Below, piece after piece: positions 787 to 23,260 of a stretch of 64,000 nt of DNA. The DNA comes from Verrucomicrobiota bacterium (GTDB lineage Bacteria > Verrucomicrobiota > Kiritimatiellia > SS1-B-03-39 > UBA6053), in contig JAFIGC010000013.1 of the NCBI GenBank assembly GCA_020831635.1, forward strand, positions 385 through 64,384. The letters are read 5' to 3'. The notes under the pieces are model-generated. The model made no database searches and had not been told where the DNA came from. It saw nothing but the letters and a program-made list of their open reading frames with translations. Within the stretch, counting starts at the first letter, position 1; each line of letters begins with the position of its first letter. Position numbers and translations under genes: made by a program.

Positions 787-3234
787 ATGAAAAACAAAAT
801 TCCGCAATCTTCCATTTTGAGTTTCCGTGCCGTGGCATTGGGCCTTCTCCTTGGCCTGTTTATCGCCGGATTTGCCTATTTCAACGATCAAGTCGTGCAG
901 AGCACGTTTCTGATTGGCAATTTTCTGCCAATTGGGGTTTTCGGGGTGGTGTTGTTGCTGATTTTGCTGGTGAACCCTCTTTTGGTGTCCATCCGGGAAT
1001 CGCTGGCGCTGAAGGGGAGTGAACTGGCCATCATTACCGCCATGGGCTTGGCGGCCTGCGCCTGGCCGGGATCCAATCTGTACAGGACTTCCACGGGAAT
1101 ACTGGCGTTGCCGAACCATCTGATCAACTTTGAAAGCAGTTGGCAGTCCAATCATCTCATGTCCTACGTACCGGGCCTTTCGGACGAACTGGCACAAGGG
1201 CATGTCCGGGACTGGGGCGTATTTGCCCGTGACATCACCAACGCCCAGCAGGATGAAGACAGCCCATTTGGGCGTTTAAAAGCGATGATGACCCCAGTGG
1301 AACGAGGCGTCTTTGAAAGGGCGGCTTCCGCCGAAGCCGTCAGTGCCAATGCGGTCCGACAGATGACCGCGACCCTGAACCGTCTGCTGCGGGAACCCGA
1401 CTTGCCAAGTGCCTTGGGGTTGGAGGAAACCCAAGGCATCCAAGATGAGACCGGCGGCGAGTTTTCCGACGTACAACGTATCAAACGAAACCGGGCCCTG
1501 TTGGTGGCCGCATTTCCGGGCCAAGTCTTGCCGTCTCCCCGTGGAGCGTCGGTGTTGGTGGATGTCCGGGAAAACGAAGATCGCGCCCTGAGTCCTTTGC
1601 TCGAAGGCCGCCCCGGGGAGGAGCGCCTGTCGGTTGCCCGACTCCCCTGGGACGTATGGGGGCCGACCATCGGTTTGTGGGGGACGGTGGTGTTGTCCCT
1701 GGGTCTGGCCACGGTTTGCATGGCCCTGATTGTGCACCGCCAGTGGTCCGGCAATGAACTGCTCTCTTATCCGGTGGTGCGATTCCTCGAGGAAACGCTG
1801 GATCGTCAACCCGGCAAACGCCTGCCGGTGATTTTGCAGAATAAATTGTTCTGGCTGGGGTTTGTGCTCATCATCCTTTTTCACCTGCAAAACGGTTTGG
1901 CCGCTTGGTTTCCCGCCGTTCCAAGCTATCCGGAAACCGTCGATTTAAGTCCGCTGACCCGACTTTTTCCCAACGCCCGGCAGGTGCCCGGTGCGGGCGG
2001 AGTTTTTAATGCCCCCCTGTTTTTTTCCGTGATCGCCTTCGCCTTTTATCTCGATTCGCGGATTTCGCTGTCCTTGGGACTCAGCAACCTGTTTTGGGTC
2101 ATATTCGGCGCGTTCTTAATTGGCAATGGCATCACCATCGGCAACAGCTACATGGGGGCGGAAAACGGAAATCTGTTAAGGTTCGGGGCCTACATCGGTT
2201 TTGCCTGCATGATCCTTTACACGGGCCGCCGTCACTACCGGGAGGCCTTTTTGGGCAGTATCGGGCTGCGTCCGAAAGGGGAGCTTCCCGCATACATTTC
2301 TTGGGCGGGTCGCGGTTTGGCGTTGGGTTCGGTGATTTCCGTGATAGGCATGCACGCGGCCGGTCTCACCTTGTTCTGGGCGATCATGTTCACTGGCGCG
2401 GTCTTGATTATTTTTCTGGTGCTGGGGCGAATCGTGGCCGAAACGGGTGCCTTTTTTCTCCAACCGCAGTGGTTGCCCATCGGGGTGTTCACGGCCTTGT
2501 TCGGCTTTGAAGCCATTGGTCCCACCCAGTATATTGTGATGGCCGTGGCCAGCGCCCTGCTGGCGGGAGATCCTCGCACCACCTTGATGCCTTTTATTCT
2601 CAATGGCTTGAAGCTCGGGGATACGGCGGCCGCCAAAGAGAAAAAAAGCGTCGGTGGCAGGTTAGGACTGCTGCTTTTGGGGATGGTGTTTCTTTCCTTT
2701 TTCGTTGCGGGTGCCGCCACCCTTTGGTTTCAATACAATGAGGGTGTGAGTGGCGACCAGTGGGCCAATCGTTCCTTGCCTTCGATGCCGTTTCAGAATT
2801 TGGATCGCAATATCTCCGAACTGGGTGCCCGAGGCACCTTGTCCGAGGTCACCGCAAACACCGCGCGGGGCCGGATCCCTTTCCCCAACCCGGATAAAGG
2901 GGCGGTGGGGTGGATGCTCGGAGGCATGGGGTTGGTGCTGGTGTTTGCGATCGCCCGCCTTCGCCTGACCTGGTGGCCTTTTCATCCGGTGATCTTTTTA
3001 GTGTGGGGCACCTTTCCCATGGGACGCTTTGGCCTCAGTTTCCTGGTGGGCTGGATGATCAAAGAAGCAGTGATTAAAACCGTGGGCGCCAAAGGCTTTC
3101 ATACCGTGAAACCCCTGATGGTGGGGGTGATTTGCGCGGAAGTCCTTGCCGCCATCTGCTGGGGGATTGTGGCGCTGCTCTATTACCGTTCCACCGGTCT
3201 GCCTCCCATCACGTATCGAGTGTTTCCAGGATGA
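787..3234 (+). CDS. Polytopic membrane protein, family A of the duplicated module (function unknown)
   Basis: 815-aa ORF with ATG at 787. It has many hydrophobic helices with a soluble insertion of roughly 230 aa after the first helices. The C-terminal motif WWPFHP...IKEAVIKTVGAKG...KP is shared with 33535-36393 (FPFHP...IKSLVIKYGGMN...KP). The N-terminus LSFRAVALGLLLG resembles the OPT-family N-terminal pattern. The stop overlaps the next start (ATGA at 3231). Confidence 0.8.
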   Translation: MKNKIPQSSILSFRAVALGLLLGLFIAGFAYFNDQVVQSTFLIGNFLPIGVFGVVLLLILLVNPLLVSIRESLALKGSELAIITAMGLAACAWPGSNLYRTSTGILALPNHLINFESSWQSNHLMSYVPGLSDELAQGHVRDWGVFARDITNAQQDEDSPFGRLKAMMTPVERGVFERAASAEAVSANAVRQMTATLNRLLREPDLPSALGLEETQGIQDETGGEFSDVQRIKRNRALLVAAFPGQVLPSPRGASVLVDVRENEDRALSPLLEGRPGEERLSVARLPWDVWGPTIGLWGTVVLSLGLATVCMALIVHRQWSGNELLSYPVVRFLEETLDRQPGKRLPVILQNKLFWLGFVLIILFHLQNGLAAWFPAVPSYPETVDLSPLTRLFPNARQVPGAGGVFNAPLFFSVIAFAFYLDSRISLSLGLSNLFWVIFGAFLIGNGITIGNSYMGAENGNLLRFGAYIGFACMILYTGRRHYREAFLGSIGLRPKGELPAYISWAGRGLALGSVISVIGMHAAGLTLFWAIMFTGAVLIIFLVLGRIVAETGAFFLQPQWLPIGVFTALFGFEAIGPTQYIVMAVASALLAGDPRTTLMPFILNGLKLGDTAAAKEKKSVGGRLGLLLLGMVFLSFFVAGAATLWFQYNEGVSGDQWANRSLPSMPFQNLDRNISELGARGTLSEVTANTARGRIPFPNPDKGAVGWMLGGMGLVLVFAIARLRLTWWPFHPVIFLVWGTFPMGRFGLSFLVGWMIKEAVIKTVGAKGFHTVKPLMVGVICAEVLAAICWGIVALLYYRSTGLPPITYRVFPG

Positions 3235-4568
3235 TGACAAGCTCCCAAACCCCCATGGACCCGGCATGTCCCTCCACTGGTCAAGAGATCCGTTGGATGG
3301 GCCTCAGGATGCAGGTGCCCCTGGACTGGGAGATACGCCGCCATGGCATCTCCCCGGATATTGGTTCCCTGGTGTTCGTGGATCATCGAACCCAACGCAT
3401 GGAAGTCCGCTGGCAACGTCCCGACAAGGAACCGGATCTGAACCGCACCTTGGAACATGCCATGGACGCGGTCCGAAAGGCACACCCCGATGTGCATATC
3501 TCCCCCAGACTTCCGTCCCGAACCGGTGCTTGGACGGGCTTCGTGTATGATCGGGAATCCAGGGTTTATCGCGCGGTATTGTATGAGAAAGACACCAACG
3601 TGTTGTTGCAGACCACCCTGACGCTGGACGGCAGCCGCGAGGAGACCCACGAGTTCGTCCGCAATCTGCTCAATCATCTGACCCTCACCGAAGCGCCGGA
3701 AAAGGCAACCCACTGGCGGGCCTTCGGCATCGATTGCCGGGTCCCTGCGGACTGGGTATTGCGGGAAGCGGTCGCCAAGCCCATGGATATCCGGCTGAAA
3801 TTCGACTGCGGCACCAAACGCATGCTGTCCAAGCAACGCACGACCGCAGAGGTCCGCCGGCTGGGGATGGTCAAAGACTGGTTCGATGGCGACCTCCACG
3901 GTTTCGCCAAAAGCCGGGCCTTGGGCAACCACCCGCACGTTCTCACCGACAATACGGGAGGCAGGGACGTGTTGCGGGTGGAATCCGACGTGGGCCGGTT
4001 TTTCTTTTTGGGACCCTTGGGGCCGAAAGACCACCAACAGTTGCGGCTTTGGCACGACCCGGACATTAACTCCATCCTGGTGCTCAGTCTGACCAACCCC
4101 CGCATTGCCCGAGTCTCGATGGAGGACATTCAGGTGGAAAGCAGTGTGGATGCGTTTCTTTCCCCCGCCGTTCTCGAAGCCCCGCGCTCGGAAAACCAGC
4201 CCCGTTCCCCTCAAGATGCGCTGTTGGACGCCATCCCCGTGCGCAACGAAGCCGTCACCTTGGAACGCGAAGCCGAGGGGGCGATATTGAGGGCGCCCCT
4301 GCGGCAACGCTGGTGGATGCGTCCTCCGTTCGGGTGGTTTTTTCCTTTTCGAGACACCCGGGGGTTCGGCGTGGATGCCTATGGCATGGAGGTGTGGGAG
4401 GCCTGTGACGGCACCCGGAGCGTCAAGGGGATTTGCGAGCGTTTCGCCAAGGCCCACGCCATCAGTTTCGGAGAGGCGCGGGTGGCCGTCTACCAATTTT
4501 TACAAACCCTCACCAAGCGGGAGCTGATTGTGATTCAAGTCACCCAAGACCCCCGGGAGATTGCATGA
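3231..4568 (+). CDS. Soluble protein with an internally duplicated N-terminal domain and a C-terminal PqqD/RRE-like peptide-binding domain
   Basis: 445 aa from ATG 3231 (the ORF-track start at 3132 overlaps the upstream gene). No TM segment is visible. The motif W-x-x-G-[LI]-x-x-x-VP-x-DW occurs twice (WMGLRMQVPLDW and WRAFGIDCRVPADW). The C-terminus FGVDAYGMEVWEACDGTRSVKGICERFAKAHAISFGEARVAVYQFLQTLTKRELIVI fits the PqqD-family pattern. ATGA overlaps occur at both ends. Confidence 0.6.
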   Translation: MMTSSQTPMDPACPSTGQEIRWMGLRMQVPLDWEIRRHGISPDIGSLVFVDHRTQRMEVRWQRPDKEPDLNRTLEHAMDAVRKAHPDVHISPRLPSRTGAWTGFVYDRESRVYRAVLYEKDTNVLLQTTLTLDGSREETHEFVRNLLNHLTLTEAPEKATHWRAFGIDCRVPADWVLREAVAKPMDIRLKFDCGTKRMLSKQRTTAEVRRLGMVKDWFDGDLHGFAKSRALGNHPHVLTDNTGGRDVLRVESDVGRFFFLGPLGPKDHQQLRLWHDPDINSILVLSLTNPRIARVSMEDIQVESSVDAFLSPAVLEAPRSENQPRSPQDALLDAIPVRNEAVTLEREAEGAILRAPLRQRWWMRPPFGWFFPFRDTRGFGVDAYGMEVWEACDGTRSVKGICERFAKAHAISFGEARVAVYQFLQTLTKRELIVIQVTQDPREIA

Positions 4569-6040
4569 AAGAGATCGTCGCCAAAAATCAAGTGGAATTG
4601 GGATCCGCGCGCTGCATACAACTCGCGCTTTCCGGGATCATGTTCCGCCTGTTTCGATCCTCCATCACCATCGTGATTTTGGGTTTGGCGGTGGCCTTTC
4701 TGGCCCACATGCTGGCCTACAGCGTGATTTCCGGCACCACGGAGCGCGCCATTTGGGCGGAATTGGAGGCGGAACGCAGCCTCGGGGTTCGGTTGCGCCG
4801 CTTGGAAAGTCCGGATGCCTTTGCCTCCCTGCTTCTACAGTTCCAGAAACAGGATGCCCATCGCTTGGCCGAGTACAGCCGCTGGGGCGCGTTGAGTGCG
4901 TCGGAGATGGAGCAGACGCTCCGTCGCGCGGCGTTGGTCGCGGATTTTGAACGCGCCGTGCAAAACTTCACCAACCGGCAACGGGCCATTTTGGCGGGGG
5001 ACCGCAATGCGATCGAGTTGCTGGAATATATCGTATCTCCCGAAGCCCTGAACGCCTTTTTGGAACGCTGTCGGCAAATTGAGGTGAGGAGCCCGTTGGG
5101 AAGCCGCGAAGCGCTGGAGACCCTGGTCACGGTGGAATGGCCCGCATTGCAAGAAGTCCTGCACCGGGTGCGGGAAGGGCATCGCCGCGCGGTCGCCCAA
5201 CTGGAACGGGAACTGGAGGGTCAACGTATTTCCGATGCGCTCATTCAAACTCCAGAGGAGGTCAAGGGTGCCGCGGAGGCCGTTGGTTTTTACACCGCCG
5301 CCTATGATTTCGACCGCTTGGCCGCCTTTGCCCGGGATGCCCGCCATCAACGCCGCGTCGAGGAGTCCATCGGGTCATTGCGCATCCGCCAAAGTCTGGC
5401 CGGTCGTTTGAACGTCCCTCCGGTGGAGATACACAGCCTCCGGGTCATGGAATGGATCGCCGAAAATAAAGATCATGCCGCCGAACTGGATCAACTCTTG
5501 GGGGAAACCGAGGGGGTGGAAGCCATTGGCGCGGACAATCTGTACCGCGTCGCCACCCATTTTCTGAAATTTCGCCGTTTGCAAAGTCTGGTGCCGATCG
5601 CCCCCGATCTGGATGCCGAAGACCGTTTCTTTGGTTTGGATCAAAGCGGACGCTGGCTCATCCTGCTCGCTTTTCTGGTCTGCGTGATCGGGGTGGCCAA
5701 CGCCATGTTGATGTCCGTGACCGAACGCTTTACCGAAATTGCCACCATGAAATGCCTGGGGGCGATGGATAAATTCATTATGATGATGTTTGTCTTCGAG
5801 GCCGCCATTCAGGGGCTGGTCGGAGGAATCTTCGGCGCATTGTTTGGCGTGTTTCTGGCCTGGGTGCGCGGGGTCTCCGAATTTGGAGGCACCCTGGTGC
5901 TTGCCGGGGTGTTCGGCACGGTGTTGCTTTCCGCGCTCCTGGCGCTGACCGTGGGCATCCTGCTGGCGGTGCTTGCGGCGGTGGGGCCCTCCTTTGCCGC
6001 CGCCCGCCTCGCGCCGATGGAAGCCATGCGTGTTGAATAA
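4565..6040 (+). CDS. FtsX/MacB-type ABC permease (small partner, copy 1) with a long helical loop between TM1 and TM2
   Basis: 491 aa from ATG 4565 (ATGA overlap). TM1 is SSITIVILGLAVAFLAHMLAY, followed by about 335 aa rich in Arg, Glu, Leu and Ala. The C-terminal FtsX domain reads WLILLAFLVCVIGVANAMLMSVTERFTEIATMKCLGAMDKFIMMMFVFEAAIQGLVGGIFG and ends ARLAPMEAMRVE. Confidence 0.8.
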   Translation: MKEIVAKNQVELGSARCIQLALSGIMFRLFRSSITIVILGLAVAFLAHMLAYSVISGTTERAIWAELEAERSLGVRLRRLESPDAFASLLLQFQKQDAHRLAEYSRWGALSASEMEQTLRRAALVADFERAVQNFTNRQRAILAGDRNAIELLEYIVSPEALNAFLERCRQIEVRSPLGSREALETLVTVEWPALQEVLHRVREGHRRAVAQLERELEGQRISDALIQTPEEVKGAAEAVGFYTAAYDFDRLAAFARDARHQRRVEESIGSLRIRQSLAGRLNVPPVEIHSLRVMEWIAENKDHAAELDQLLGETEGVEAIGADNLYRVATHFLKFRRLQSLVPIAPDLDAEDRFFGLDQSGRWLILLAFLVCVIGVANAMLMSVTERFTEIATMKCLGAMDKFIMMMFVFEAAIQGLVGGIFGALFGVFLAWVRGVSEFGGTLVLAGVFGTVLLSALLALTVGILLAVLAAVGPSFAAARLAPMEAMRVE

Positions 6041-6051
6041 TCCCCTATGGA

Positions 6052-6837
6052 ATGTACCCGATGATCATGACTGCTGAAAACGAAAAGCCAAAACAAACCC
6101 CGCCGGATCGGGCGGTGATCGTGCGGACCCTGGACCTGGAGAAGGTCTATGGCAGCGGCGAGGCCGCCACCTACGCGCTCAACGGGGTGGACAGCACCAT
6201 CATGCGGGGCGAACTCATTGCCATCATGGGCCCTTCCGGTTCCGGCAAAAGCACCTATTTCAACATGATCGGCGCCCTCGACGCCCCCACAAAGGGGCGC
6301 ATTCTCATTGACGAGGTGGATGTGGCCCAACTGTCCGCCTCCGAACTGGCCTTTTTGCGGTGCCGGAAAATCGGCTATATTTTCCAATCTTACAACCTCA
6401 TCCGCTACATGACCGCCCTCGAAAACGTGACCGTGCCCATGACTTTTTCCGGAACCACCCCCGAGGACGCCCGCCGACGGGGCATGGAGCTGTTGGACCT
6501 GGTGGGGCTGGGCGACCGTTGGCAGCACCGCCCCATCGAAATGTCAGGCGGACAGCAGCAACGGGTGGCCATCGCCCGCTCTCTGGCCAATCAACCCCAA
6601 ATCCTGCTGGCCGACGAACCCACCGCCAACCTCGATTTTCAAACCGGGGAAGAGGTGCTTGAAATTCTGCGCAAAATCAACCAGGAACGCGGGGTGACGG
6701 TGATTTGCTCCACCCACGATCACCGTCTGCTCTACCTCTGCAACCGCATCATGTGGATTCGGGACGGCAAGGTCGAACGGGTCGAAAAACGCGAAAACAT
6801 GACCATTAAAACCGGGAAAATCGGAGGAGAATCCTGA
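6052..6837 (+). CDS. ABC transporter ATP-binding protein, MacB/LolD/FtsE-like (class I of the module)
   Basis: Walker [10 protein letters not shown], signature [13 protein letters not shown], Walker [14 protein letters not shown]-loop STHDH. It shares LRCRKIGYIFQSYN and ERGVTVICSTHDH with 44696-45520. Confidence 0.9.
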   Translation: MYPMIMTAENEKPKQTPPDRAVIVRTLDLEKVYGSGEAATYALNGVDSTIMRGELIAIMGPSGSGKSTYFNMIGALDAPTKGRILIDEVDVAQLSASELAFLRCRKIGYIFQSYNLIRYMTALENVTVPMTFSGTTPEDARRRGMELLDLVGLGDRWQHRPIEMSGGQQQRVAIARSLANQPQILLADEPTANLDFQTGEEVLEILRKINQERGVTVICSTHDHRLLYLCNRIMWIRDGKVERVEKRENMTIKTGKIGGES

Positions 6838-9800
6838 TGTCGAAGTCTCTTCAATCCCGTATCCTCGTTCACGCGCTTTTCGCGTCGCTTGGCCTGTTCG
6901 GCACGGTCGCCCGCGCCGTGGAGATCGACGAAAGCGTTTTTCGGAGCGATTTCCAAGCGCTGACCGCATTCGATCACCGCCTCCCCGGCAGTGAAGGACA
7001 ACGGGAAACCGCCCGGTTCCTCGAATCCCGTCTGCGGGAAATTGGCATCGATGAGGTGCACACCCTCCGCTTTGAAACCTGGTATCCCGAATTGCAGCGG
7101 TCGGAAATGGTGGTGGACGGGGCGGGCATTCCCATTTTTCCCCTGCGCCCCAATCTGGTGATCTGGCCCAACACCCCCGAGGAGGGTTTGACCGCGCCGC
7201 TGTTGTACGTGGGCAAAGGGGATATACAGGATTACGGTGCCCGGAATCCTGAAGGCCGCATCGTGCTCATGGACTATGCCGCAAGTGAAAACTGGCGGGT
7301 GGCCTTTTCCCTGGGTGCCAAGGCGGTGGTGTTTGTCGGAGAACCCGGGGACGCTCCCACTGCGCCGCTCCACGTTCCCGCCCCGGTGAATTTCCTCCGT
7401 TTTTATGTGGACCGCTCCGATCTGCCCGCCGATCCCGGCGAACTGGAGGGGCGCGAAGTCAGTCTGTTCTCACGGGTCAAATGGCAATCCAGACCGGATC
7501 AGGTGATCTACGGACGGGTGCATGGCCGCGATTCCGAGCAGTTGGAACCCATTCTGCTCGCCGCCCATTACGATTCATTTGGCAATGTCCCCCACCGCTC
7601 GCCCGCAGCCAGGGGCGCGGCCAACACTGCGCTGGTGCTGCAGGCGGCCCGGCATTTTGCAGCAAACACCCCCCAACGGGATGTCGCGTTTCTACTGACC
7701 AGTTCCCGTGCCTACAATCACCAGGGCGCTCGCTATTTTTATGAGGCCCTCACGATTCCCGACGCACAGTTGAACGACGTCTATAATGCCCGTCTTCGGG
7801 AGGAATCGGAGATCCAAGGCGCGTTGGATTTGTTGCTGTCGGAGGGCTTGCGAGCGGATCCCCGGGCGGGACACGGGGATTTGCTCGCCCGCCAGATCTT
7901 TCAGGAAGCCGAGTTCATGAACGCCGATTTGACCGCGGCCCTCCAACGCAGGCGGCTGACGGTGGACCGAATGGACGATCCGGAGATGGAGGCGCTTCGC
8001 TTGGAAATCGAAGAGAAGGTCGTGCGCCGAACGGTCATTGACGACATCAGACGGGCCCTCTTCGGCAACCGCTTTTTGGAAGTCTACGCGCAATTGGAAG
8101 CCGTGCGAAGCGGGGAGGCGAAGATGGAGGACCTTGCCTTGACCTCATTGACGGGAGATGCGGAGGTCGACCGACGCATTCTCACCGAAATCATTCCCTC
8201 TGTATTGGAGGAGCTTCTGGAATTGACTCGCGCCCGTTTCGAGGGACGGCTCGCCGAATTGAACGAAGAGCGCACCTATTGGGAAAACACCCAATCCCTG
8301 CGCGCGGAAGGCCGGGCCTCCGGAGAGTCTCCGGCCGGTCGCATGCATCTGCATGTCAGTTTCAATCTGGGCGATGCCAGTTCCCGATGGGGGGTAGTGG
8401 TGGGCGATCCCGTGGAGGGCATGAGCAACATGGGGGTTCAGTCCGGCGCCGATGCCCCCGGGCTTTATGTCCGCTTGTTGTCCCAACTCGGGGAGATCTC
8501 CCGAAACCGGGGCGATATTTTCCAACTCAACACCCGCACGCTCACCGATACGCTCTTCGGTCCCAGTTTTGTAGGCGAGCCTTATACCAGCAGTGCCAAA
8601 ACCGCCGGAGATTATGGGTTTCACAACATTTCCCTTATGACGGAAAACGATTCCCGTCTTCGCGACGGACATCCCGGGGACACCCCGGAGGCCCTCCGGA
8701 TCGAGACCTTTCTCAATCAGGGCCGTGAAGCCCTCTCGCTTGTCGAGGGTATGCTCGACACCCCCAATCTCGCGGTCACCCGCCCGATTGCCAGAATGGT
8801 GACCAGCAAGTACTACGATTGGCGAAACGGACGTTCCTGGGGAGATTTTGTCTCTCGCACCGTGGTGGGGGGGCTGGCCGAAAGCCGACCCGCCGAAAAC
8901 GCACTGATCGCACATTGGCCCACGGGCGGGGGCAGTGACAGCGGCCACTGGGCCAATATTGAAAAAAGCGGCATTTACCGGGACTACATGCCCTTTGGCT
9001 TGCAACGCGCGAATTATTTCGGACGATTTTCCATGGTGGGCCAGAGAAGCGTACAGGCAAGGCTGGCCCTTTTCAGCGCGTATTTCGATGAGCGGGGGGA
9101 TCTGGAGGCCATTTCCAACCAACGCTCCCAACTGATTCCCCGCATGGCCGCCAGCATCCGCTTGACCCTATTTCAGGCCCGCGGGCATGCCATTCTGACC
9201 AATCCCGGACATCAGACCTTTCCCGACAGCCTCAACATCATGAAAGGCACCACCAACTTTGCCTTTCCAAACGACCGGGTGCTTTGGGGAACCGTGAATG
9301 ACGTCAGTTTCGCCTATCTGGCCGAGCGGGATTTTGCAGGCGGTTTGAAGTTTTTCCAGCGGTTGGGTCCGGTGTTGATGGCCCTGCCCGGCCGGGACCC
9401 GGTGGCGGATGGGGGAATTCCCACCGGCGATTTGCTCAGTCCGCCGAGGGTAAGCGGATTTTCCGCCGAAAATCTGTGGGCGCTCAACGAATCCCGTCTG
9501 TCCACCATGCGTCAACGCGGGGTCAGCCGCACCGATCTGGAAACCTACCACAGCCGGGCCCTGGCCGCCCGCGAGCAGGCCAACGAGGCCACGTCCTTGG
9601 CCGAGGAGGAGTCCCTGCGTCTCTCAAGCGCCTCCATCTCCCACCGATTGCACGAACCGCTCCGCAGTTCCATGGATGACCTGGTCACTGCCATCATACT
9701 CTTGCTGCTGCTGACGCTGCCCTTTGCCTTTGCCATGGAACGTCTACTGGTGGGCGCCACTTCCATTTATGGTCGACTGAGCGGATTCTGCGTGTTTTTC

Positions 9801-11759
9801 ATCCTGACCTTCGGTTTGTTGTATTTTCTGCACCCCGGATTCGCCATTGCCTCGGCCCCCATGATCATTTTCCTGGCCTTCACCGTATTGGGGCTTTCCG
9901 CCATGGTCATCCAGATGCTCTTGCGCCGTTTCAAACAGGAATTGAAGATGCTGCAGGGGCAGGGGGTGCAGGCCCACGACGCCGAAGTCTCCCGGGCGGG
10001 CACCACTCTGGCCGCCATCGGCATGGGCATGTCCACCATGCGCCGCCGCCCCACTCGAACCTTCCTCACCGCCATCACCGTGGTGGCCCTGACTTTCACC
10101 ATCCTCTGTTTCGCCTCCTTCACCCGGGAAATGGGGGTTCGCGCCACTTATTTGGGACCCAGCCCGGAAGATCAGCCCGACGGCGTGCTCGTACGCACCC
10201 TCAATTACGCCCCTTTGCCCAACGGACAACGCGAATTGCTGTTGCGCTACCATGACGGGGAATCCGTGCTCACCAGCCGTTGGTGGCTGCGGCGCCAGAA
10301 TGTCGAAAGTCCGCGAATTTTCATCACCAATCCCGCCAATGGAAATTCCGTGGAGCAGGAGGCCATGATCGGCTTTGATGTCGACGAACTCCGCCGCTGG
10401 CCCGCGTTGCGGGAGGTGGCGGGCCGCGAGCCCGAGCAGGCTCGGTTTATGCGGGATATCCAGGAGAACAAACTGTTTCTCCCCCCGTTTGTCATGGAAC
10501 TCCTGGAGGTGGAACCCGGGGACCCCGTGATCGTCAAAGGGCGCGAAATGGTGGTGGCCGAGCCTCTGGACCTCAATCGTCTGCAACGCCTCAACGGCAT
10601 GGATCTTGAGTCCTTGATTCCCCTCGACAGCCGTCAGGTCGATGCCGATGCCATGGCTCCGACCACGGAGGCCGATATCTTGAATCTCGATGCGGAAGTC
10701 GAACAGAACTTCATTCGCCTCGGGGTGGGGGAAATCTCCATGACCTCCAACGCGATGATCCGGGAATTGGGCGGCAAACCCCACATCATGACCCTGTATC
10801 CCGCCGAAACCGTGAATGCCCGCGAATTGGGGCAAACCTTGGCCGCCATCGTGTCCTCTCCCGTGTGGGTGGTCAGCGAGATCGGCGTGGAGCGCATGGT
10901 GCTCACCCATTTGACCCAGATCTCCGGGGTATTCGCCATCGCCATTCCCCTGTTTCTGGGGGGGCTCATCATCTTCGGCACCCTGCTCGGATCGATCAGC
11001 GACCGCGAAAAGGAAATTTACACCTTCTCCGCCCTGGGGCTGGGCCCTTCGCACGTGGGCATGCTCTTCTTCGCCGAAGCCGGGGTTTACGCCGTGGTCG
11101 GGGGGATGGGCGGACAGTTGATCGCGCAAATCATCGCCTGGATCGCGTCGGTGCTGGCCAACCGGGGGATCATCGATCCGGTTTCCATCAATTTCTCCTC
11201 CACCAATTCGCTGTTTGCCATCGGGTTGGTGATGCTGCTGGTGCTGGTCTCCTCCCTTTATCCCGCCTATCGCGCCTCCAAAAGCGCCAACCCCGGGCTC
11301 GCCCGCGACTGGAGCATGCCCGATCCGGATAACGATGTCATCGACCTCACCTTCCCCTTCACCGTCTCCGCCTATGACATCACCGGGGTGGTCAGCTTCC
11401 TGGCTGAACATTTCCGCAGCTTCGACGATGCCGGTTTCGGGAAATTCGCCACCACCGTGACCGAGATTCGGCGAAACGAAGGCGGCAACCTCGAAATCCG
11501 ATCCGAACTGGCCCTGTCGCCCTTCGACCTGGGCGTGACCGAAGAACTGTTGTTGGCCTCCCGTCCCTCCTCGATCGAAGGCGTCGACGAAGTGCATGTC
11601 CGCATCAAGCGCCTCAGCGGCGCCGAGAACGACTGGGTTCGCGGCACCCGGGTGTTTCTCAAGGAACTGCGCACCCAATTCCTGGTCTGGCGCACCCTGT
11701 CGGACGAGCGAATCGAGTCCTACCGCCACGCCACCTTTCAAGAACTGGGGGAGGTCTAA
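6837..11759 (+). CDS. Giant FtsX/MacB-type permease fused to a degenerate PA/M28 peptidase-like ectodomain (copy 1)
   Basis: 1640 aa; the ATG at 6837 overlaps the upstream stop (TGATG). Signal anchor is ILVHALFASLGLFGTVARA. PA-like segment is GRIVLMDYAASENWRVAFSLGAKAVVFVGE. The M28-like scaffold AHYDS...ARGAANTAL...FLLTSSRAYNHQGARYF lacks the GADDN and EE metal and catalytic residues. A helical insert and a TM cluster follow, then a MacB-type TM1 (RRRPTRTFLTAITVVALTFTILCFA), a second periplasmic domain, and an FtsX domain (SDREKEIYTFSALGLGPSHVGMLFFAEAGVYAVVGGMGG). A soluble C-terminal tail of about 150 aa completes the protein. Confidence 0.75.
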   Translation: MSKSLQSRILVHALFASLGLFGTVARAVEIDESVFRSDFQALTAFDHRLPGSEGQRETARFLESRLREIGIDEVHTLRFETWYPELQRSEMVVDGAGIPIFPLRPNLVIWPNTPEEGLTAPLLYVGKGDIQDYGARNPEGRIVLMDYAASENWRVAFSLGAKAVVFVGEPGDAPTAPLHVPAPVNFLRFYVDRSDLPADPGELEGREVSLFSRVKWQSRPDQVIYGRVHGRDSEQLEPILLAAHYDSFGNVPHRSPAARGAANTALVLQAARHFAANTPQRDVAFLLTSSRAYNHQGARYFYEALTIPDAQLNDVYNARLREESEIQGALDLLLSEGLRADPRAGHGDLLARQIFQEAEFMNADLTAALQRRRLTVDRMDDPEMEALRLEIEEKVVRRTVIDDIRRALFGNRFLEVYAQLEAVRSGEAKMEDLALTSLTGDAEVDRRILTEIIPSVLEELLELTRARFEGRLAELNEERTYWENTQSLRAEGRASGESPAGRMHLHVSFNLGDASSRWGVVVGDPVEGMSNMGVQSGADAPGLYVRLLSQLGEISRNRGDIFQLNTRTLTDTLFGPSFVGEPYTSSAKTAGDYGFHNISLMTENDSRLRDGHPGDTPEALRIETFLNQGREALSLVEGMLDTPNLAVTRPIARMVTSKYYDWRNGRSWGDFVSRTVVGGLAESRPAENALIAHWPTGGGSDSGHWANIEKSGIYRDYMPFGLQRANYFGRFSMVGQRSVQARLALFSAYFDERGDLEAISNQRSQLIPRMAASIRLTLFQARGHAILTNPGHQTFPDSLNIMKGTTNFAFPNDRVLWGTVNDVSFAYLAERDFAGGLKFFQRLGPVLMALPGRDPVADGGIPTGDLLSPPRVSGFSAENLWALNESRLSTMRQRGVSRTDLETYHSRALAAREQANEATSLAEEESLRLSSASISHRLHEPLRSSMDDLVTAIILLLLLTLPFAFAMERLLVGATSIYGRLSGFCVFFILTFGLLYFLHPGFAIASAPMIIFLAFTVLGLSAMVIQMLLRRFKQELKMLQGQGVQAHDAEVSRAGTTLAAIGMGMSTMRRRPTRTFLTAITVVALTFTILCFASFTREMGVRATYLGPSPEDQPDGVLVRTLNYAPLPNGQRELLLRYHDGESVLTSRWWLRRQNVESPRIFITNPANGNSVEQEAMIGFDVDELRRWPALREVAGREPEQARFMRDIQENKLFLPPFVMELLEVEPGDPVIVKGREMVVAEPLDLNRLQRLNGMDLESLIPLDSRQVDADAMAPTTEADILNLDAEVEQNFIRLGVGEISMTSNAMIRELGGKPHIMTLYPAETVNARELGQTLAAIVSSPVWVVSEIGVERMVLTHLTQISGVFAIAIPLFLGGLIIFGTLLGSISDREKEIYTFSALGLGPSHVGMLFFAEAGVYAVVGGMGGQLIAQIIAWIASVLANRGIIDPVSINFSSTNSLFAIGLVMLLVLVSSLYPAYRASKSANPGLARDWSMPDPDNDVIDLTFPFTVSAYDITGVVSFLAEHFRSFDDAGFGKFATTVTEIRRNEGGNLEIRSELALSPFDLGVTEELLLASRPSSIEGVDEVHVRIKRLSGAENDWVRGTRVFLKELRTQFLVWRTLSDERIESYRHATFQELGEV

Positions 11760-11802: not shown

Positions 11803-13890
11803 ATGAGTGATTCCACCTCCAACACATCCCCCCCCCCGAAGAAACTCCGCAAGGAGCGCGGAGTCGACAAGGAATTCGAGATTTTCCGCGACCAGATGCG
11901 TCCGCCGAAGCATTTCGACGAAGGTTTCTCCTGGGAATCCTTTTTCGGGGCCCTGTTTATCGGCGCGGTGATGGTGCCCGGAGCCATTTACATGACCCTG
12001 CTGGCCGGGGAGTCCATCGGCCCCGCCGCCCAGTGGGTCACCCTGATTCTGTTTTTGGAAGTGGCCCGCCGGGCCAACCGCGACATTCCCAACGCCCAGA
12101 TTTTTACCCTCTTTTACATTTCCGGGGCCCTCATGGCCACCGCCAGCGGTTCCGGCGGCGACTTTCACGGCGGACTGCAAACCCTCTACAATCAATTTTT
12201 CGTGCAATCCGACGCCGCCCGCGCCGCCGGCATCGCCGATCAAATCCCCTCCTGGGTGGTGCCCTCGGATCCCGCCGTGCTCGAAACCCGATCCCTGTTC
12301 CGCATCGAGTGGCTCGCGCCCCTCGGCCTGATTGTGTTCACCATGATTCTGGGACGCATCGACAGCATGATCATCGGCTACGGTCTGTTTCGGCTCACCA
12401 GTGACATCGAAAAGCTGCCTTTCCCCCTGGCCCCCGTGGGTGCCCAGGGCATTCTCGCGCTCTCCGAAGAGCAGAAAGGGCACGAAATTTCCGAGGACAG
12501 CAATCGAGAGGGGGTGTCGAAATGGCGAATGTTCTCCATTGGGTCGGTGATCGGACTGATCTTCGGATTTTTGTATCTGGGAATCCCCACCATTACCGGG
12601 GCCCTGCTCGCGGAACCCATTACCCTCATTCCGCTGCCCTTCGTGGACTTCACCCCGGACACCGCCGCCTATATTCCCGCCGCCGCCGTGGGATTGGCCT
12701 TTGATCTCGGGTTTGTCATCGTGGGCATGGTCCTGCCTTTCTGGGCCATGGTGGGGTCTTTCCTTGGGTTGCTGATTACCCTCATCCTCAATCCCATCCT
12801 CTATCATACCGGGGTGCTGACCTCCTGGAATCCGGGAGACAGCCTGCAGGAGACCTTTTACAAAGGAAACATCGACTTTTATTTCAGTTTCTCCATCGGG
12901 ATCGCCCTCTCCATTGCCATTGCCGGGATTGTGAGCATCGTCCTCAAAACCCGAAAAGAAAAGGCGAGGAAGGCAAAGGATGAAAATCCGCTCTCCCGCT
13001 CGGCCTACGCGATTCCCGAAGGGCGCGGGGACATTCGCGCCATCTGGGTATTCGCCACCTACCTGATTGCCTGCAGCCTCTACATTGGCGTGTCCATGTT
13101 TCTGCTCTACGTCACCGATGGCAGCATTTTCTGGCCCGTGGTCTGGGTCATGCTGTTTTACGCCTTCGTGTTCACCCCGTTCATCAGCTACATGACCGCC
13201 CGCATGGAGGGGATTGCCGGACAGGTGGTCACCATTCCCTTCGTGCGCGAAGCCTGCTTCATTCTCTCCGGTTATTCCGGGGTGGCGGTCTGGTTTTTGC
13301 CCATTCCCCTCCACAACTATGGCCAAATGACCGTGTTCTACCGCCAGTGCGAACTCACCGGCACCAAATTCACCTCCATTTGGAAATCCGAGGTGCTGTT
13401 GATGCCCATCATTCTCGGGTTCAGTCTGTTCTTCGCCCACATGATTTGGCAGATGGGCGACATCCCCGGCCCGAACTTCCCCTTTGCCCAAGAGTGGTGG
13501 GAAGTCACCGCCGCCCAGAAGTCGCTGATCTTCTCCTCCACCATGGGCGGATTCACCGAATTCGAGCAGGCCCTCAATCCCGCCTACATCGGCTGGGGAT
13601 TGGGCTTGGGCTGTCTCGCCTTCGGGGTCATGGGTTACTTTGCCCTCCCCGTATTCCTCATTTACGGCGTGGTGCGCGGACTCAACCAAACCCTGCCCTT
13701 CATGGTGATTCCGCAATTCCTCGGCGCCATGATCGGCCGCCTCTATTTCCAGCGCAAATTCGGCGCCAAAAAATGGCGGCAGATGATTCCGGTGCTTTTC
13801 GCCGGCTTCAGTTGCGGCATGGGGCTGATCGCCGTGTTCACCCTCGGATTCGTCTTCCTCAAGGGAAGCGTCCTCACCCTCCCGTTTTAA
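11803..13890 (+). CDS. Polytopic membrane protein, family B of the duplicated module (possible distant OPT-like transporter)
   Basis: 695 aa with about 14-16 hydrophobic segments. It is a clear paralog of 41966-44050; shared strings include MSD..., GF(S/T)W..., LPFPLAP, ARMxGIAGQ and CELT(G/R)TK(F/L)TSI. The N-terminal GFSWESFFGALFIGAVMVPG and the LPFPLAPVGAQG motif resemble OPT-family patterns (ELTxRAxxxG; LxFPSGxA). Confidence 0.6.
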   Translation: MSDSTSNTSPPPKKLRKERGVDKEFEIFRDQMRPPKHFDEGFSWESFFGALFIGAVMVPGAIYMTLLAGESIGPAAQWVTLILFLEVARRANRDIPNAQIFTLFYISGALMATASGSGGDFHGGLQTLYNQFFVQSDAARAAGIADQIPSWVVPSDPAVLETRSLFRIEWLAPLGLIVFTMILGRIDSMIIGYGLFRLTSDIEKLPFPLAPVGAQGILALSEEQKGHEISEDSNREGVSKWRMFSIGSVIGLIFGFLYLGIPTITGALLAEPITLIPLPFVDFTPDTAAYIPAAAVGLAFDLGFVIVGMVLPFWAMVGSFLGLLITLILNPILYHTGVLTSWNPGDSLQETFYKGNIDFYFSFSIGIALSIAIAGIVSIVLKTRKEKARKAKDENPLSRSAYAIPEGRGDIRAIWVFATYLIACSLYIGVSMFLLYVTDGSIFWPVVWVMLFYAFVFTPFISYMTARMEGIAGQVVTIPFVREACFILSGYSGVAVWFLPIPLHNYGQMTVFYRQCELTGTKFTSIWKSEVLLMPIILGFSLFFAHMIWQMGDIPGPNFPFAQEWWEVTAAQKSLIFSSTMGGFTEFEQALNPAYIGWGLGLGCLAFGVMGYFALPVFLIYGVVRGLNQTLPFMVIPQFLGAMIGRLYFQRKFGAKKWRQMIPVLFAGFSCGMGLIAVFTLGFVFLKGSVLTLPF

Positions 13891-13917: not shown

Positions 13918-14697
13918 ATGAGTGAAGAACCACCCCAAGCCCAATCAGCCCCGCCCTCGGGCGCCACCACCACGCCCATCGTGCAAGTATGCGGGGTCTC
14001 CAAGATCTATCGCCTCCGCGAGGAAACCGTGTATGCCTTGAAAAAGGTGGATCTCACCATCTACCAAGGGGAATATCTCTCCATCATGGGTCCGTCCGGT
14101 TCCGGAAAATCGACCCTCTTCAACATCGTAGGCGCTTTGGACAAAGCCTCGGAAGGGTATGCCCAGATCGGCGACCTGCGTCTCACCGAATTGAGCCCCA
14201 GCCAGCTCTCACACGTCCGGTGCAACTATATCGGCTACGTCTTCCAAGCCTTCAACCTCATTCCCTCCCTCAGCGCCCTCCGCAATGTTTCCCTGCCGCG
14301 CATTTTCATGGGGGCGAGCCCCGAGGAGGCGGATGCCAAAGCCGCCGAAGTGCTGGAATCCGTTGGACTGGGGCACCGTCTCACCCACACCCCCGACGAA
14401 CTCTCCGGCGGACAACAGCAACGCGTGGCCATCGCCCGGGCCTTGATCAACGAACCCGTGATCATCCTCGCCGACGAGCCCACCGCCAACCTCGACCTCA
14501 ACACCGGCTCCGACGTGATCAAGATTCTCAAGAATCTTTCCGTCGAAAAAGGGGTGACCATCATCACCGCCACCCACGACCACAAAATGCTCAGCCAATC
14601 CGACCGCGTCGTCCGCATCCGCGAAGGCGAAATCGAGGCCATCCAAAACCGCGACGAACTCGAAATCGAAGAAGGCACGATCGAGTTTTCGCATTGA
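13918..14697 (+). CDS. ABC transporter ATP-binding protein, MacB/LolD/FtsE-like (class II of the module)
   Basis: Walker [41 protein letters not shown]. It shares [16 protein letters not shown], SALRNVxLP and ATHDH with 32798-33538. Confidence 0.9.
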   Translation: MSEEPPQAQSAPPSGATTTPIVQVCGVSKIYRLREETVYALKKVDLTIYQGEYLSIMGPSGSGKSTLFNIVGALDKASEGYAQIGDLRLTELSPSQLSHVRCNYIGYVFQAFNLIPSLSALRNVSLPRIFMGASPEEADAKAAEVLESVGLGHRLTHTPDELSGGQQQRVAIARALINEPVIILADEPTANLDLNTGSDVIKILKNLSVEKGVTIITATHDHKMLSQSDRVVRIREGEIEAIQNRDELEIEEGTIEFSH

Positions 14698-14844
14698 TCC
14701 GACACGTGGAAGGTCGGCGGGAAGTTAGCCACCAAACGGCATCCAACCTGCATAAAATCAGCGGACCAGTCCATGCATCGTCCGAAAATTCCCTTGACCC
14801 ACGAGGAATTTTTCCGCAGGGTCTTTTTCAACAAGGAGCCCTTT

Positions 14845-15894
14845 ATGATCCGTATATCCTGTTTGGTTGTTTTGCTTTCCGGTCTGATTTGCGTTCAGGG
14901 CGCGGAAATGTTGACCCGAAGCTATGTCATCGGGCAAATTCCGGTTTTTCATGAGCAGCCCCATGGAGGGGGTGGGGGCTTCGGGGATGCTTTTGGAGGG
15001 GAGCCTGTCGTTGGCCGAGGCGATGTTTCCCCGCGTCGTCCCCGGGCGGATGAATCCGACCTCCCTTGGGCCCGCCGAACCGCCAATCCGGAATTTCTCC
15101 AGCAATATGTGACCCATCACCTCGGCGTGGAATTTCCGGAGGGCAGTTGGCTGCGGTATCAACGGGCCGGACATGTCCTGCACATGCACAACACCGAGGA
15201 CAATCACGCCTTTATGAAATTCGGGCTCATCAGCCATCGTTTGCTTGCTTATCAGGTTGCCCTCACCCTTCGCATGGTTCGCTTTGATGACGCGGTGATT
15301 GAAGCCTTGGAACGAAACCACCCCGCCGGCATCCCCGACCGGCTTTTGGTCGATCTCTGGCGCGAGGGAGAAGGAGAGGTTCTGTCCAGCCAAAGCCTCA
15401 AAACCATCAATGGCGTGAATGCCATTATTCACTGTGTGGAAGAATTCATTTATCCGACGCATATGAGGACCACGTCTGAAAAGAAGGCGTCCGGAGCCGC
15501 GGAAAATGAGAATCCGGAAAAACATCCTCCGGTTTATGGGGGACACGAAACGATGCAAATCGGGGCAATTTTCAACATTACCCCAACGGTTTCCGCGGAT
15601 ATGCAAACGGTGAACCTGATGTTGCTTCCTGAAACGACCCAACTCAAGGGCGACAATCCCCTGCATCCGCCGGAACTGCAGCCGATGACCCCGATCTTCC
15701 ATTCCATCAACCTCACCACCGCCTTGGTGGTTCAGTCCGGGTCCACCTTGGTGGCCGGACAAAGCAGCGACTTGGTGCCGGGCTCCTGGATTGTCATTTT
15801 CGTGGGCGCGCAACTGGTGGACACGAAAGGCGAGCCCATCGAACTTCCGCTGACCCCGCCCGAAGCGAATGCCGGTGAGGAGGTTCGGCCATGA
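14845..15894 (+). CDS. Secreted protein with secretin-like N-domain and short secretin-core-like C-terminus
   Basis: Start chosen at ATG 14845, which follows AAGGAG at 14832-14837 and gives the signal peptide MIRISCLVVLLSGLICVQGAE. The C-terminal GAIFNITPTVSADMQTVNLMLLPETTQL...PIFHSINLTTALVVQSGSTLVAGQ fits the secretin core pattern (G..l.vtP.v..d...i.l...pe.s...P.f..r...t.v.v.dG.t.v.gG). It is a paralog of the next gene. Confidence 0.5.
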   Translation: MIRISCLVVLLSGLICVQGAEMLTRSYVIGQIPVFHEQPHGGGGGFGDAFGGEPVVGRGDVSPRRPRADESDLPWARRTANPEFLQQYVTHHLGVEFPEGSWLRYQRAGHVLHMHNTEDNHAFMKFGLISHRLLAYQVALTLRMVRFDDAVIEALERNHPAGIPDRLLVDLWREGEGEVLSSQSLKTINGVNAIIHCVEEFIYPTHMRTTSEKKASGAAENENPEKHPPVYGGHETMQIGAIFNITPTVSADMQTVNLMLLPETTQLKGDNPLHPPELQPMTPIFHSINLTTALVVQSGSTLVAGQSSDLVPGSWIVIFVGAQLVDTKGEPIELPLTPPEANAGEEVRP

Positions 15895-16862
15895 TTCGTC
15901 GTCCCCTCTTTTTTGCAATCCTCTTCGTCTTTGCCGCGCACGCCCAAGAAGCGGTTACGGAAGCCGCCTCGGATGATTCGACCGAATTCATCACCCGGGC
16001 CTACCACATTCCACCGACCCGATTCGGCGACCCTTTTGCAGAATTTCAGGTGCCTTCCGCCGATCGTGGCGATGAAGCGTTGCCTTGGGCCCGAAAGGTG
16101 GCCACGGAAGCGGATACCCTGGAATTTTTCGCGTCCACCTTCAATATCGATTTTCCCGAGGGCAGCCGGATTCGGGTGTTGCGCGCGACGACGGGCCTTA
16201 CCGTGATCCTTCACAATACCCGCCGCAATCACGAGCGCTTCCAGACCATATTGCGCTTGAACGGCGTTTGGTCGGCCAATATTCGGGTCGTTTGGCGGGT
16301 GGTGAGCATGCCCAACGACGTTGTGGATCCCTTGGAGCGTGAAGCCGGCGGGGATCTGGATGACGAAACCCTCTTGGACCTCTGGAAACAGGGGCACGGA
16401 GAAAACCTGGCCACCCAAACGCTCATGAGTATAAATGGGGCGAACAACATATTGACCCTGAGCGACGAAATCATTTATCCCGCGGATATGGATACGCACG
16501 GGGAAGAGAATCCTCAGGTGATTTATGGAAATTTTCAGAAACGTGACGCGGGATTCATCCTGAACGTAACCCCCGTCATTCAACCGGGTTTTGAGACGAT
16601 TTCGTTGACCCTGCTCCCGGAAGTGGTGGAGTATCGCGGTCACCTCCCCAATGTTCCCGAAACCCTGGCACCGCTCAGTCCGCTGTTTCGCACATTGAGC
16701 TATACGGGTTCCATCGAAATCCCCAACGGCGGCACCCGCATGGTGGGCATGAGCAACAACCACGACGGCACGCACCGCATTTTGATGTTCATCGGCGCCA
16801 CCGCGATCGAGCCCGACGGCACCCCGGTCAAGCCGCTGGACACGGGCCTTTTTCAGGAGTGA
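15891..16862 (+). CDS. Secreted protein with secretin-like N-domain and short secretin-core-like C-terminus (tandem paralog)
   Basis: ATGA overlap with the upstream gene. Signal peptide is MIRRPLFFAILFVFAAHAQE. The segment GFILNVTPVIQPGFETISLTLLPEVVEY...PLFRTLSYTGSIEIPNGGTRMVGM parallels 14845-15894, as do the shared LPWARK/R and DLWxxGxGE motifs. Confidence 0.5.
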   Translation: MIRRPLFFAILFVFAAHAQEAVTEAASDDSTEFITRAYHIPPTRFGDPFAEFQVPSADRGDEALPWARKVATEADTLEFFASTFNIDFPEGSRIRVLRATTGLTVILHNTRRNHERFQTILRLNGVWSANIRVVWRVVSMPNDVVDPLEREAGGDLDDETLLDLWKQGHGENLATQTLMSINGANNILTLSDEIIYPADMDTHGEENPQVIYGNFQKRDAGFILNVTPVIQPGFETISLTLLPEVVEYRGHLPNVPETLAPLSPLFRTLSYTGSIEIPNGGTRMVGMSNNHDGTHRILMFIGATAIEPDGTPVKPLDTGLFQE

Positions 16863-22015: not shown

Positions 22016-22049
22016 TGCGCCAACCGTTTGCCTTGGAAAGTTTTCGTTT

Positions 22050-23252: not shown

Positions 23253-23260
23253 AGTTCCGA

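Follow-up and report, generated by a model that had tools for sequence, protein, structure and literature searches.

Does a peptidase fold that forms the ectodomain of an ABC (ATP-binding cassette) transporter permease still make an enzyme, or does it serve the permease in some other way? This question is raised by a 1640-residue protein, hereafter the giant, encoded in a 64,000-nucleotide stretch of the genome of a Verrucomicrobiota bacterium (assembly GCA_020831635.1, contig JAFIGC010000013.1, positions 385 to 64,384), which we call the window. The ectodomain of the giant is 100% identical to a public protein (P0007) that NCBI names 'MAG: M28 family peptidase [Verrucomicrobia bacterium]' (MAG, metagenome-assembled genome). 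The initial annotation, made from the sequence of the window, had proposed that it is a PA plus M28 scaffold devoid of its catalytic and metal-binding residues, interrupted by a helical insert and fused to an FtsX-type permease. Fold matches, residue mapping and a Pfam FtsX match all uphold this core claim.

The segment in question, 6837-9677, corresponds exactly to residues 1-947 of the giant, from the start codon to the first transmembrane (TM) helix as placed by hydropathy. The layout of the open reading frame (ORF) is as follows; pLDDT is the predicted local distance difference test score of the structural models.

6837-11759, + strand: giant permease ORF, 1640 residues
6837-6917, + strand: signal peptide, residues 1-27, ending in VARA before VE (hydrophobic residues 9-27; model helix 5-22, low pLDDT)
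6918-7121, + strand: N-terminal segment of the M28 fold, residues 28-95, with conserved HRLPGS (aligned to BSAP/YwaD, 2ek8, 3iib and TfR)
7122-7481, + strand: PA (apical) domain inserted in the M28 fold, about residues 96-215 (profile alignment and Foldseek)
7482-7754, + strand: central M28 segment, residues 216-306 (Pfam M28 match at residues 227-303)
7563-7577, 7611-7613 and 7707-7712, + strand: within the central segment, AHYDS, R259 and R291-A292 (Glu-Glu replaced), respectively
7755-8324, + strand: helical bundle of about 190 residues inside the M28 domain, residues 307-496 (AlphaFold2 helices)
8325-8771, + strand: distal M28 segment, residues 497-645 (Foldseek and local profile alignments)
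8370-8372 and 8667-8669, + strand: within the distal segment, G512 of LHVSFNLGD and G611 of RDGHPGDT, respectively
8772-9431, + strand: beta-rich region, probably two tandem beta-sandwich (Ig/pilin-like) domains, residues 646-865 (AlphaFold2 strands within 655-841)
9432-9677, + strand: three-helix stalk into the membrane, residues 866-947 (AlphaFold2 helices 872-893, 899-916 and 921-946)
9678-11288, + strand: membrane module, residues 948-1484, comprising three extra TM helices, a cytoplasmic linker and a MacB/FtsX-type permease of four TM helices (hydropathy; Pfam FtsX at residues 1366-1482)
11289-11759, + strand: family-specific C-terminal cytoplasmic domain, residues 1485-1640, common to a second giant in the window (copy 2)

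Four lines of evidence agree on an M28-like scaffold in the ectodomain. Pfam Peptidase_M28 matched residues 227-303 with 26.5 bits (gathering cutoff 21.3; E 6e-6). A phmmer search against PDB sequences aligned the aminopeptidase BSAP/YwaD (6hc6) over residues 40-311, PA insert included (E 1.9e-6), and also returned nicalin (E 0.014). A family profile from which the helical insert had been excised matched YwaD (5e-21), the Aneurinibacillus aminopeptidase 2ek8 (1.5e-20), the Shewanella protein 3iib (6e-9), TfR (6e-8), PaAP (5e-8), the Aeromonas aminopeptidase AAP (2e-6), nicalin (8e-6) and nicastrin (2e-3). Finally, an AlphaFold2 model of the ectodomain, built from 28 sequences, reached a mean pLDDT of 89.8 and a predicted template modelling score (pTM) of 0.88. 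Foldseek comparison of this model with the PDB retrieved 2ek8 and BSAP (E about 1e-16), TfR (2e-13), GCPII (7e-13), 3iib and PaAP. On the 407-residue BSAP, the alignment of about 655 columns bridged the helical insert and gave a TM-score of 0.60-0.63 on the target.

The strings on which the proposal was built were all located: AHYDS at residues 243-247, ARGAANTAL at 258-266, TSSRAYNHQG at 288-297, YGFHNISL at 593-600 and RDGHPGDTPEAL at 609-620. In the model, the central M28 segment consists of the HxD strand (239-244), a helix (258-276), a strand (283-288) and a further helix (296-306), and the distal segment contains strands 505-510, 518-521 and 597-602 and helix 622-641.

The individual parts of the fold are supported to different degrees. 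A PA-like segment had been placed upstream of AHYDS, and both the profile alignments and Foldseek bear this out. The Pfam PA hidden Markov model (HMM) gave no match in the giant, so that PA membership is asserted at profile and fold level only; since the alignments to BSAP and 2ek8 run across the PA insert (GRIVLMDY...LGAKAVVFV), it stands at that level. The distal part, also described as M28-like, draws its support from the fold match, together with weak local alignments of TPxDT; the Pfam M28 HMM did not reach it even after removal of the helical insert (the match stays at profile positions 5-78). In these local alignments 'NFNLDMVG' of BSAP faces 'sldlsd' of the family, and HTPEDS/HTPNDT face 'gtPaDt'. 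The beta-rich region, modelled separately as residues 645-872, reached a pLDDT of 73, and its best Foldseek matches were weak (E 1.2e-3; Gram-positive pilins and Ig domains); for this reason it is given no specific fold. The helical insert and the beta/stalk region had no Pfam or PDB sequence match.

Is the metal site of the M28 family retained on this scaffold? Residues were mapped by profile alignments to BSAP/YwaD, 2ek8 and 3iib. Column statistics were taken, in the numbering of the giant, from 179 sequences, comprising 28 word-search matches and the best 150 of an exhaustive search. The initial annotation had suggested scoring the five metal ligands, and this was done: four are replaced and H244 alone is left. 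The H-x-D context survives as AHYDS, as had been noted, with the ligand His as H244 and the Asp as D246 (D in 92% of sequences). The bridging Asp, reported lost at ARGAANTAL, falls on R259 or G260, depending on alignments that lie one register apart, and Asp is found in neither. The Glu-Glu pair is indeed absent from TSSRAYNHQG: the catalytic Glu, the general base, is R291 in the giant and mostly Q, H or R among relatives (E in 16 of 179), and the ligand Glu is A292 (A in 53%). The ligand Asp of N-L-D-M corresponds to G512 (G, S or A in this column; D in 1%), and the ligand His of H-T-P-x-D-T to G611 (G in 72%, H in 1%).

The finding that ligands are present but shifted had been named as what would speak against a lost site. 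One residue away from the expected positions lie D513 and H612, conserved in 66% and 28% of relatives, respectively. H244 itself is poorly conserved across the family: of the three orthologs nearest to the giant (75-78% ectodomain identity), two have Ser or Pro in its place, and the column contains His in 12% of sequences, with Pro commonest. All 178 fused relatives carry at most one canonical ligand, the sole sequence with two (P0029) being a free-standing true M28 enzyme. Judged from these columns, a present-but-shifted ligand set in the giant is very unlikely. Because both the binuclear zinc site and the catalytic glutamate are missing, the ectodomain is predicted to be a pseudo-peptidase.

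The former metal loop is, at the same time, the most conserved block of the ectodomain (residues 251-275, VPxxSPGARxAANxAxLL). Its family motif, SPGARxAAN (SPAARGAAN in the giant), sits on the former bridging-Asp loop, with R259 as R in 85% of the 179 sequences, A261 as A in 94-95% and N263 as N in 93%. Outside this loop, R48 and G51 of the N-terminal M28 segment are kept in 91-93% of the 179 relatives and R887 of the stalk in 86%. N106, R188, W216 and R281 also count among the conserved residues of the ectodomain. A site that has degenerated and yet stays under strong selection usually points to a pseudo-enzyme that has kept a ligand to bind. The least conserved part of the ectodomain is the helical insert.

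This insert of about 190 residues had been described as separating the proximal and distal M28-like parts, and it is seen there in the AlphaFold2 model, between the strand and helix that carry the Glu-Glu position and the strand that carries the N-x-D position. Its helices span residues 309-339, 347-376, 381-409, 413-424 and 442-493, mostly with pLDDT values of 87-97. The insert and the Arg motif are present in subfamily A (Verrucomicrobiota, Planctomycetota and others); in subfamily B (Zixibacteria-like and others; P0022-P0028) the insert is absent or very short, and the former metal loop reads PGA[NESD]xA[GS], with His at the Glu-Glu position. The insert is thus clade-specific.

The resemblance of the protease-like, apical and helical layout to the TfR/GCPII branch of the M28 family, drawn in the initial annotation, held in part. 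The matches to TfR and GCPII are real, but the nearest structures are bacterial PA-containing aminopeptidases and not specifically that branch, and the helices are placed differently. In TfR and GCPII (M28B) the helical domain comes after the protease-like domain. In the giant, the probable beta-sandwich domains follow the M28 fold instead. The three-part layout shared with TfR/GCPII is analogous or convergent, not homologous, and because the helical insert lies at a different position the TfR analogy is functional only.

To what machine is this head attached? Hydropathy places three TM helices between residue 949 and about residue 1030, one at 1075-1093 and three more at 1355-1477. The last four correspond to an FtsX module, in which TM1 (1075-1093) is followed by a periplasmic loop of about 260 residues (about 1094-1354) and by TM2-4 (1355-1477). 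Pfam FtsX matched residues 1366-1482 (E 2.1e-10), PDB matches of the membrane module were the MacB-like Spr0695 (5xu1, 2.7e-6), MacB, LolE, LolF and YtrF, and MacB_PCD matched homologs of subfamily B. The topology of the giant's permease agrees with that described for MacB (PMC5985334).

Directly upstream lies the following gene.

6052-6837, + strand: MacB/LolD-type ABC ATPase (Pfam ABC_tran 1.7e-32; NCBIfam LolD/MacB/FtsE-like)

This protein matched the LolD, MacB, DevA and FtsE models, and its stop codon TGA overlaps the ATG of the giant in TGATG at 6835-6839. From this arrangement, the ATPase is predicted to be translationally coupled to the giant, and the two proteins are assigned, by their domain matches, to the type VII (MacB/FtsX) ABC systems. 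Characterised members of this group act by mechanotransmission (PMC5985334); by family membership, the giant would be expected to do the same.

Behind the permease, the C-terminal 155 residues form a cytoplasmic domain with the motifs WxMPxP...FPFTVSAYD...LAPFDLGV...FLxWRTL. It is the best-conserved part of the giant, with 54-82% identity across phyla as compared with about 20-55% in the ectodomain, and gave no Pfam or PDB sequence match. The tail motifs are common to the copy 2 giant, as had been observed.

How widespread is the fusion? A word-indexed homolog search with the ectodomain alone returned six relatives. The reading of the family as rare was overturned by an exhaustive profile search, which yielded 3094 proteins with E≤1e-3, of which 1079 had E≤1e-30; every one stands for a 50%-identity cluster. 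The best 150 matches were almost all 1500-1900 residues long. When one genome per GTDB species was scanned, the ectodomain alignment offered no stretch conserved enough to build patterns from, and the ectodomain as a single sequence gave no match; an alignment of the C-terminal module found at least 301 loci/species genomes. Carriers belong to Verrucomicrobiota (including Lentisphaeria and Kiritimatiellae), Planctomycetota (Phycisphaeraceae, Planctomycetaceae, Brocadiaceae), Myxococcota (Polyangiaceae) and Fibrobacterota/Chitinivibrionales. Of the 80 loci listed (see below), every one but that of the isolate 'Verrucomicrobia bacterium LW23' comes from a MAG. The fusion had been regarded as unusual, and these counts contradict that view. 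Our literature searches found nothing on an M28-type ectodomain fused to an FtsX/MacB permease.

The giant is part of a seven-gene operon, in which the ATPase and the giant stand fourth and fifth. The remaining genes are as follows.

787-3234, + strand: DUF6785/DUF6784 membrane protein (Pfam)
3132-4568, + strand: protein with a C-terminal PqqD domain (Pfam)
4433-6040, + strand: small FtsX permease with an all-helical periplasmic loop (Pfam)
11803-13890, + strand: polytopic membrane protein of 695 residues, a distant relative of the OPT superfamily (via its ortholog in locus L002)
13918-14697, + strand: second ABC ATPase of the operon (Pfam ABC_tran 4.5e-32; same place in L002, L006 and L007)

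The operon thus runs DUF6785/DUF6784, PqqD, small FtsX, ABC ATPase, giant, 695-residue polytopic protein, second ABC ATPase, and comprises two each of permeases, ATPases and large polytopic membrane proteins. Two further Verrucomicrobia loci (L006 and L007) have the identical seven-gene order with overlapping ends, and L002 nearly so. Loci of subfamily B retain the giant, a polytopic protein of about 670 residues, PqqD, a short FtsX protein and an ABC ATPase.

The 695-residue protein is 50% identical to its L002 ortholog, which matched Pfam OPT with 30.9 bits (gathering cutoff 25.8) over positions 152-649; because the link runs through this ortholog, we call the protein 'OPT-like' by transitivity. 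It is 34% identical to the corresponding partner in copy 2. Neighbourhoods were counted in 80 listed loci (L008-L087) of the 301, which cover all phyla found. An OPT-like gene (about 670-695 residues) lies directly 3' of the giant in 78 of the 80, often with overlapping stop and start codons; in one of the two exceptions the contig ends 71 nt past the giant. An ABC ATPase lies directly 5' of the giant in 65 of 72 loci. By this count, the OPT-like gene looks like an obligate partner of the giant, a partner newly recognised here and not mentioned in the initial annotation.

Some details of these loci deserve mention in their own right. The ORF starts listed for 4433-6040 and 3132-4568 lie within the preceding genes and have probably been set too far upstream; for the small FtsX protein the probable true start is MKEIVAKNQ, at residue 45 of the listed ORF. 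Its periplasmic loop, of about 300 residues, looks nearly all helical by sequence and is not a MacB-type Porter/Sabre domain. Proteins with DUF6785 and DUF6784 are encoded twice in the window (787-3234 and 33535-36393) and also in the conserved operon of L002, L006 and L007, and we found no paper that mentions either domain. Similarity between DUF6785 and the OPT-like protein was marginal by BLAST (E 0.004), and homology is not claimed. In one subfamily B locus (L003, 6623-9934), three DUF2092 (LolA-like) genes and a thioredoxin-like gene stand between the giant and the OPT-like gene, an arrangement which hints that the cargo of this lineage is hydrophobic or lipidated.

A peptidase fold without its zinc site, an ATP-driven permease and a peptide-transporter-like neighbour lead us to an envelope machine rather than an enzyme. 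In such a machine, ATP binding and hydrolysis in the cytoplasm would be relayed through the TM helices and the three-helix stalk to the periplasmic head by mechanotransmission, and this head would be moved, rather than a substrate being carried through the permease. The head would retain, as a non-catalytic binding site, the cleft that the PA lid forms with the former active site. With the conserved Arg in the bridging-Asp position or beside it, the charge of this pocket would be reversed and might suit an acidic or carboxylate ligand. The ligand would most plausibly be a peptide or a peptide-containing molecule, because three modules of the operon (M28/PA, OPT-like and PqqD) are of peptide-handling ancestry. 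The head could capture or hand over this ligand, with the OPT-like partner providing a path across the inner membrane, and the helical insert may dimerise the two heads of a permease dimer, as the helical domain does in TfR/GCPII.

That the ectodomain serves a type VII ABC machine as its head, binding a ligand without catalysis or acting mechanically, and that this machine works with the OPT-like partner, is, in our estimation, an even call. We put forward more tentatively, and as doubtful, that the giant and its OPT-like neighbour represent an undescribed class of envelope machine, in which a type VII ABC motor has a built-in pseudo-aminopeptidase as its periplasmic receptor for a peptide or lipopeptide and acts on an OPT-type channel by loading, unloading or gating it. 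If this were true, ATP would help a peptide-containing molecule to cross the envelope in bacteria of the PVC (Planctomycetes-Verrucomicrobia-Chlamydiae) group, Myxococcota and Fibrobacterota, and the PqqD-domain protein would handle the same ligand in the cytoplasm.

Several observations weigh against the picture of a peptide-binding head and its transporter. The 695-residue protein of the window itself had no direct Pfam OPT match, and neither did two further orthologs. The Arg at position 259 is specific to subfamily A; the residue is Asn in copy 2, and N, E, S or D in subfamily B. Some members of subfamily B, which retain an acidic side chain close to the bridging position and have His where the Glu-Glu pair would be, may have a single-metal site. 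The argument for a binding site is drawn from conservation in sequence and is correspondingly provisional. Cooperation of MacB-type systems with OPT proteins is not known.

The second giant locus of the window, a shorter paralogous one, bears on the alternatives.

32798-44050, + strand: copy 2 locus
32798-33538, + strand: copy 2 ABC ATPase
33535-36393, + strand: copy 2 DUF6785/6784 protein
36390-41969, + strand: copy 2 giant, 1859 residues
41966-44050, + strand: copy 2 OPT-like partner

The copy 2 giant contains two LysM domains inserted before the HxD strand (about residues 300-400). Since LysM is present in just 3 of 24 long family members, all in the copy 2 clade, it is taken as a clade-specific gain, which hints at peptidoglycan contact for copy 2. 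The stretch between the two giant loci holds the last part of a dcw cluster (MurC-like ligase, Ddl, FtsQ, FtsA and FtsZ) and an Amidase_2 gene (18698-24469 and 28562-29797). A conserved link to cell division was considered and rejected: neither dcw genes nor Amidase_2 stand beside the orthologs in L006 and L007, and for this reason the adjacency is probably coincidental. Also between the two loci, on the - strand, a 1309-residue ORF (24472-28401) showed a weak match to the heparinase II/III C-terminal domain (E 2.8e-4, below the Pfam cutoff). Just after the second ATPase of the first operon there are two tandem short genes, 14773-15894 (373 residues) and 15891-16862 (323 residues), each with a secretin domain and much shorter than usual secretins. 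As a conserved feature the secretin link was discarded: none of the 80 related loci has a secretin gene, and none was found beside the L006 and L007 orthologs.

Could the giant be an FtsEX-like regulator of cell-wall hydrolysis instead? The head would then play the role of EnvC, binding peptidoglycan stem peptides or a hydrolase and switching the hydrolase on with the ATPase cycle. We consider this unlikely. The LysM domains in the head of copy 2 and the murC-ddl-ftsQ-ftsA-ftsZ and Amidase_2 genes flanked by both giant loci would fit, as would the fact that pseudo-hydrolase partners are the norm for FtsEX (PMC7668044). Most long members lack LysM, however, and the dcw/amidase neighbourhood is kept neither in L006 and L007 nor in distant relatives. 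No hydrolase gene was seen in the annotated operons or neighbourhoods, the 80-locus census having made no query for hydrolases, and the conserved partner is an OPT-like membrane protein instead. The parallel between the giant and FtsEX acting through degenerate LytM factors, drawn in the initial annotation, therefore remains an analogy.

Less likely still is a Lol/MacB-like extractor or efflux machine, in which the ectodomain would be a periplasm-spanning cap or dimerisation scaffold that docks a carrier or outer-membrane parts and has no specific ligand site. The long helical insert and stalk would fit, as would the three LolA-like genes of L003, the two secretin-domain genes downstream of the first operon, and YbbAP-TesA and LolCDE as type VII systems that extract hydrophobic cargo (PMC12646458 and PMC8333309). 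The secretin genes, however, recur in none of the 80 related loci and DUF2092 in one locus only, and the strongest conservation of the ectodomain falls on the former active-site loop and not on the insert, which is the least conserved.

A still-active peptidase with a shifted or non-canonical site, made for instance of H244, D513 and H612, we judge scarcely credible: the Pfam M28 score above its cutoff, the NCBI name and the partial conservation of D513 and H612 would favour it, but Arg replaces the catalytic Glu in the giant, as Q, H or R does in most relatives, neither the bridging Asp nor the ligand Glu remains, H244 changes to Ser or Pro even in close orthologs, and no fused relative has more than one canonical ligand.

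Taken together, the annotation of the giant is corrected and a conserved operon is defined; the function of the family remains a prediction. The labels 'M28 family peptidase' and 'ABC transporter permease' are both misleading on function, and they cover a family found in PVC bacteria, Myxococcota and Fibrobacterota, most of which are uncultured. Among the mechanical engines of the bacterial envelope, type VII ABC systems (FtsEX, LolCDE, MacAB and YbbAP) form a small and well-studied set. In the giant, what delivers the periplasmic output is a predicted dead M28 aminopeptidase, fused to the permease and genetically tied to an OPT-like protein. This offers a testable case of a pseudo-enzyme coupled to an ATP motor, and a bacterial counterpart to TfR, nicastrin and nicalin, in which a protease fold is reused as a receptor.

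The closest relatives of the head, BSAP/YwaD (6hc6), the Aneurinibacillus aminopeptidase (2ek8), PaAP (8ac7) and the Shewanella protein (3iib), share with it the succession of M28 N-terminal part, PA insert and M28 C-terminal part, as well as the structural motifs RxxGS, the Asp of HxD and TPxDT. Unlike them, the giant lacks four of the five zinc ligands and the catalytic Glu, and has its Glu-Glu helix separated from the N-x-D strand by a helical bundle of about 190 residues; they are secreted enzymes, whereas its M28 domain is part of a membrane permease. TfR1, nicastrin (of gamma-secretase) and nicalin likewise have, as the binding or gating ectodomain of a membrane complex, a protease-like fold whose metal site is degenerate. 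These precedents for a non-catalytic M28 ectodomain in such a complex were among the matches of our own searches, but they are eukaryotic single-pass proteins without an ABC motor.

Among ABC systems, FtsEX with EnvC (and likewise with its PcsB, RipC and CwlO partners) resembles the giant in joining a type VII pair to a dead hydrolase-fold periplasmic output (PMC7668044 and PMC5985334). EnvC, however, is a separate protein of M23/LytM fold bound via a coiled coil, whereas the M28 pseudo-enzyme of the giant is fused N-terminally through three extra TM helices; and no hydrolase partner was seen in the annotated giant loci, in which the OPT-like partner is conserved instead. MacB, LolCDE and YbbAP-TesA share with the giant an FtsX-type module of four TM helices, in which a large loop joins TM1 to TM2, and a LolD/MacB-like ATPase. 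To this plan the giant adds an N-terminal head of about 920 residues, three further TM helices and, in the cytoplasm, a family-specific domain of about 155 residues, and its operon holds two permeases, two ATPases and two large polytopic proteins. What sets this large, uncharacterised family apart is the combination of a type VII ABC mechanotransmitter, so classed by its relatives, with a putative receptor ectodomain of the pseudo-M28 kind.

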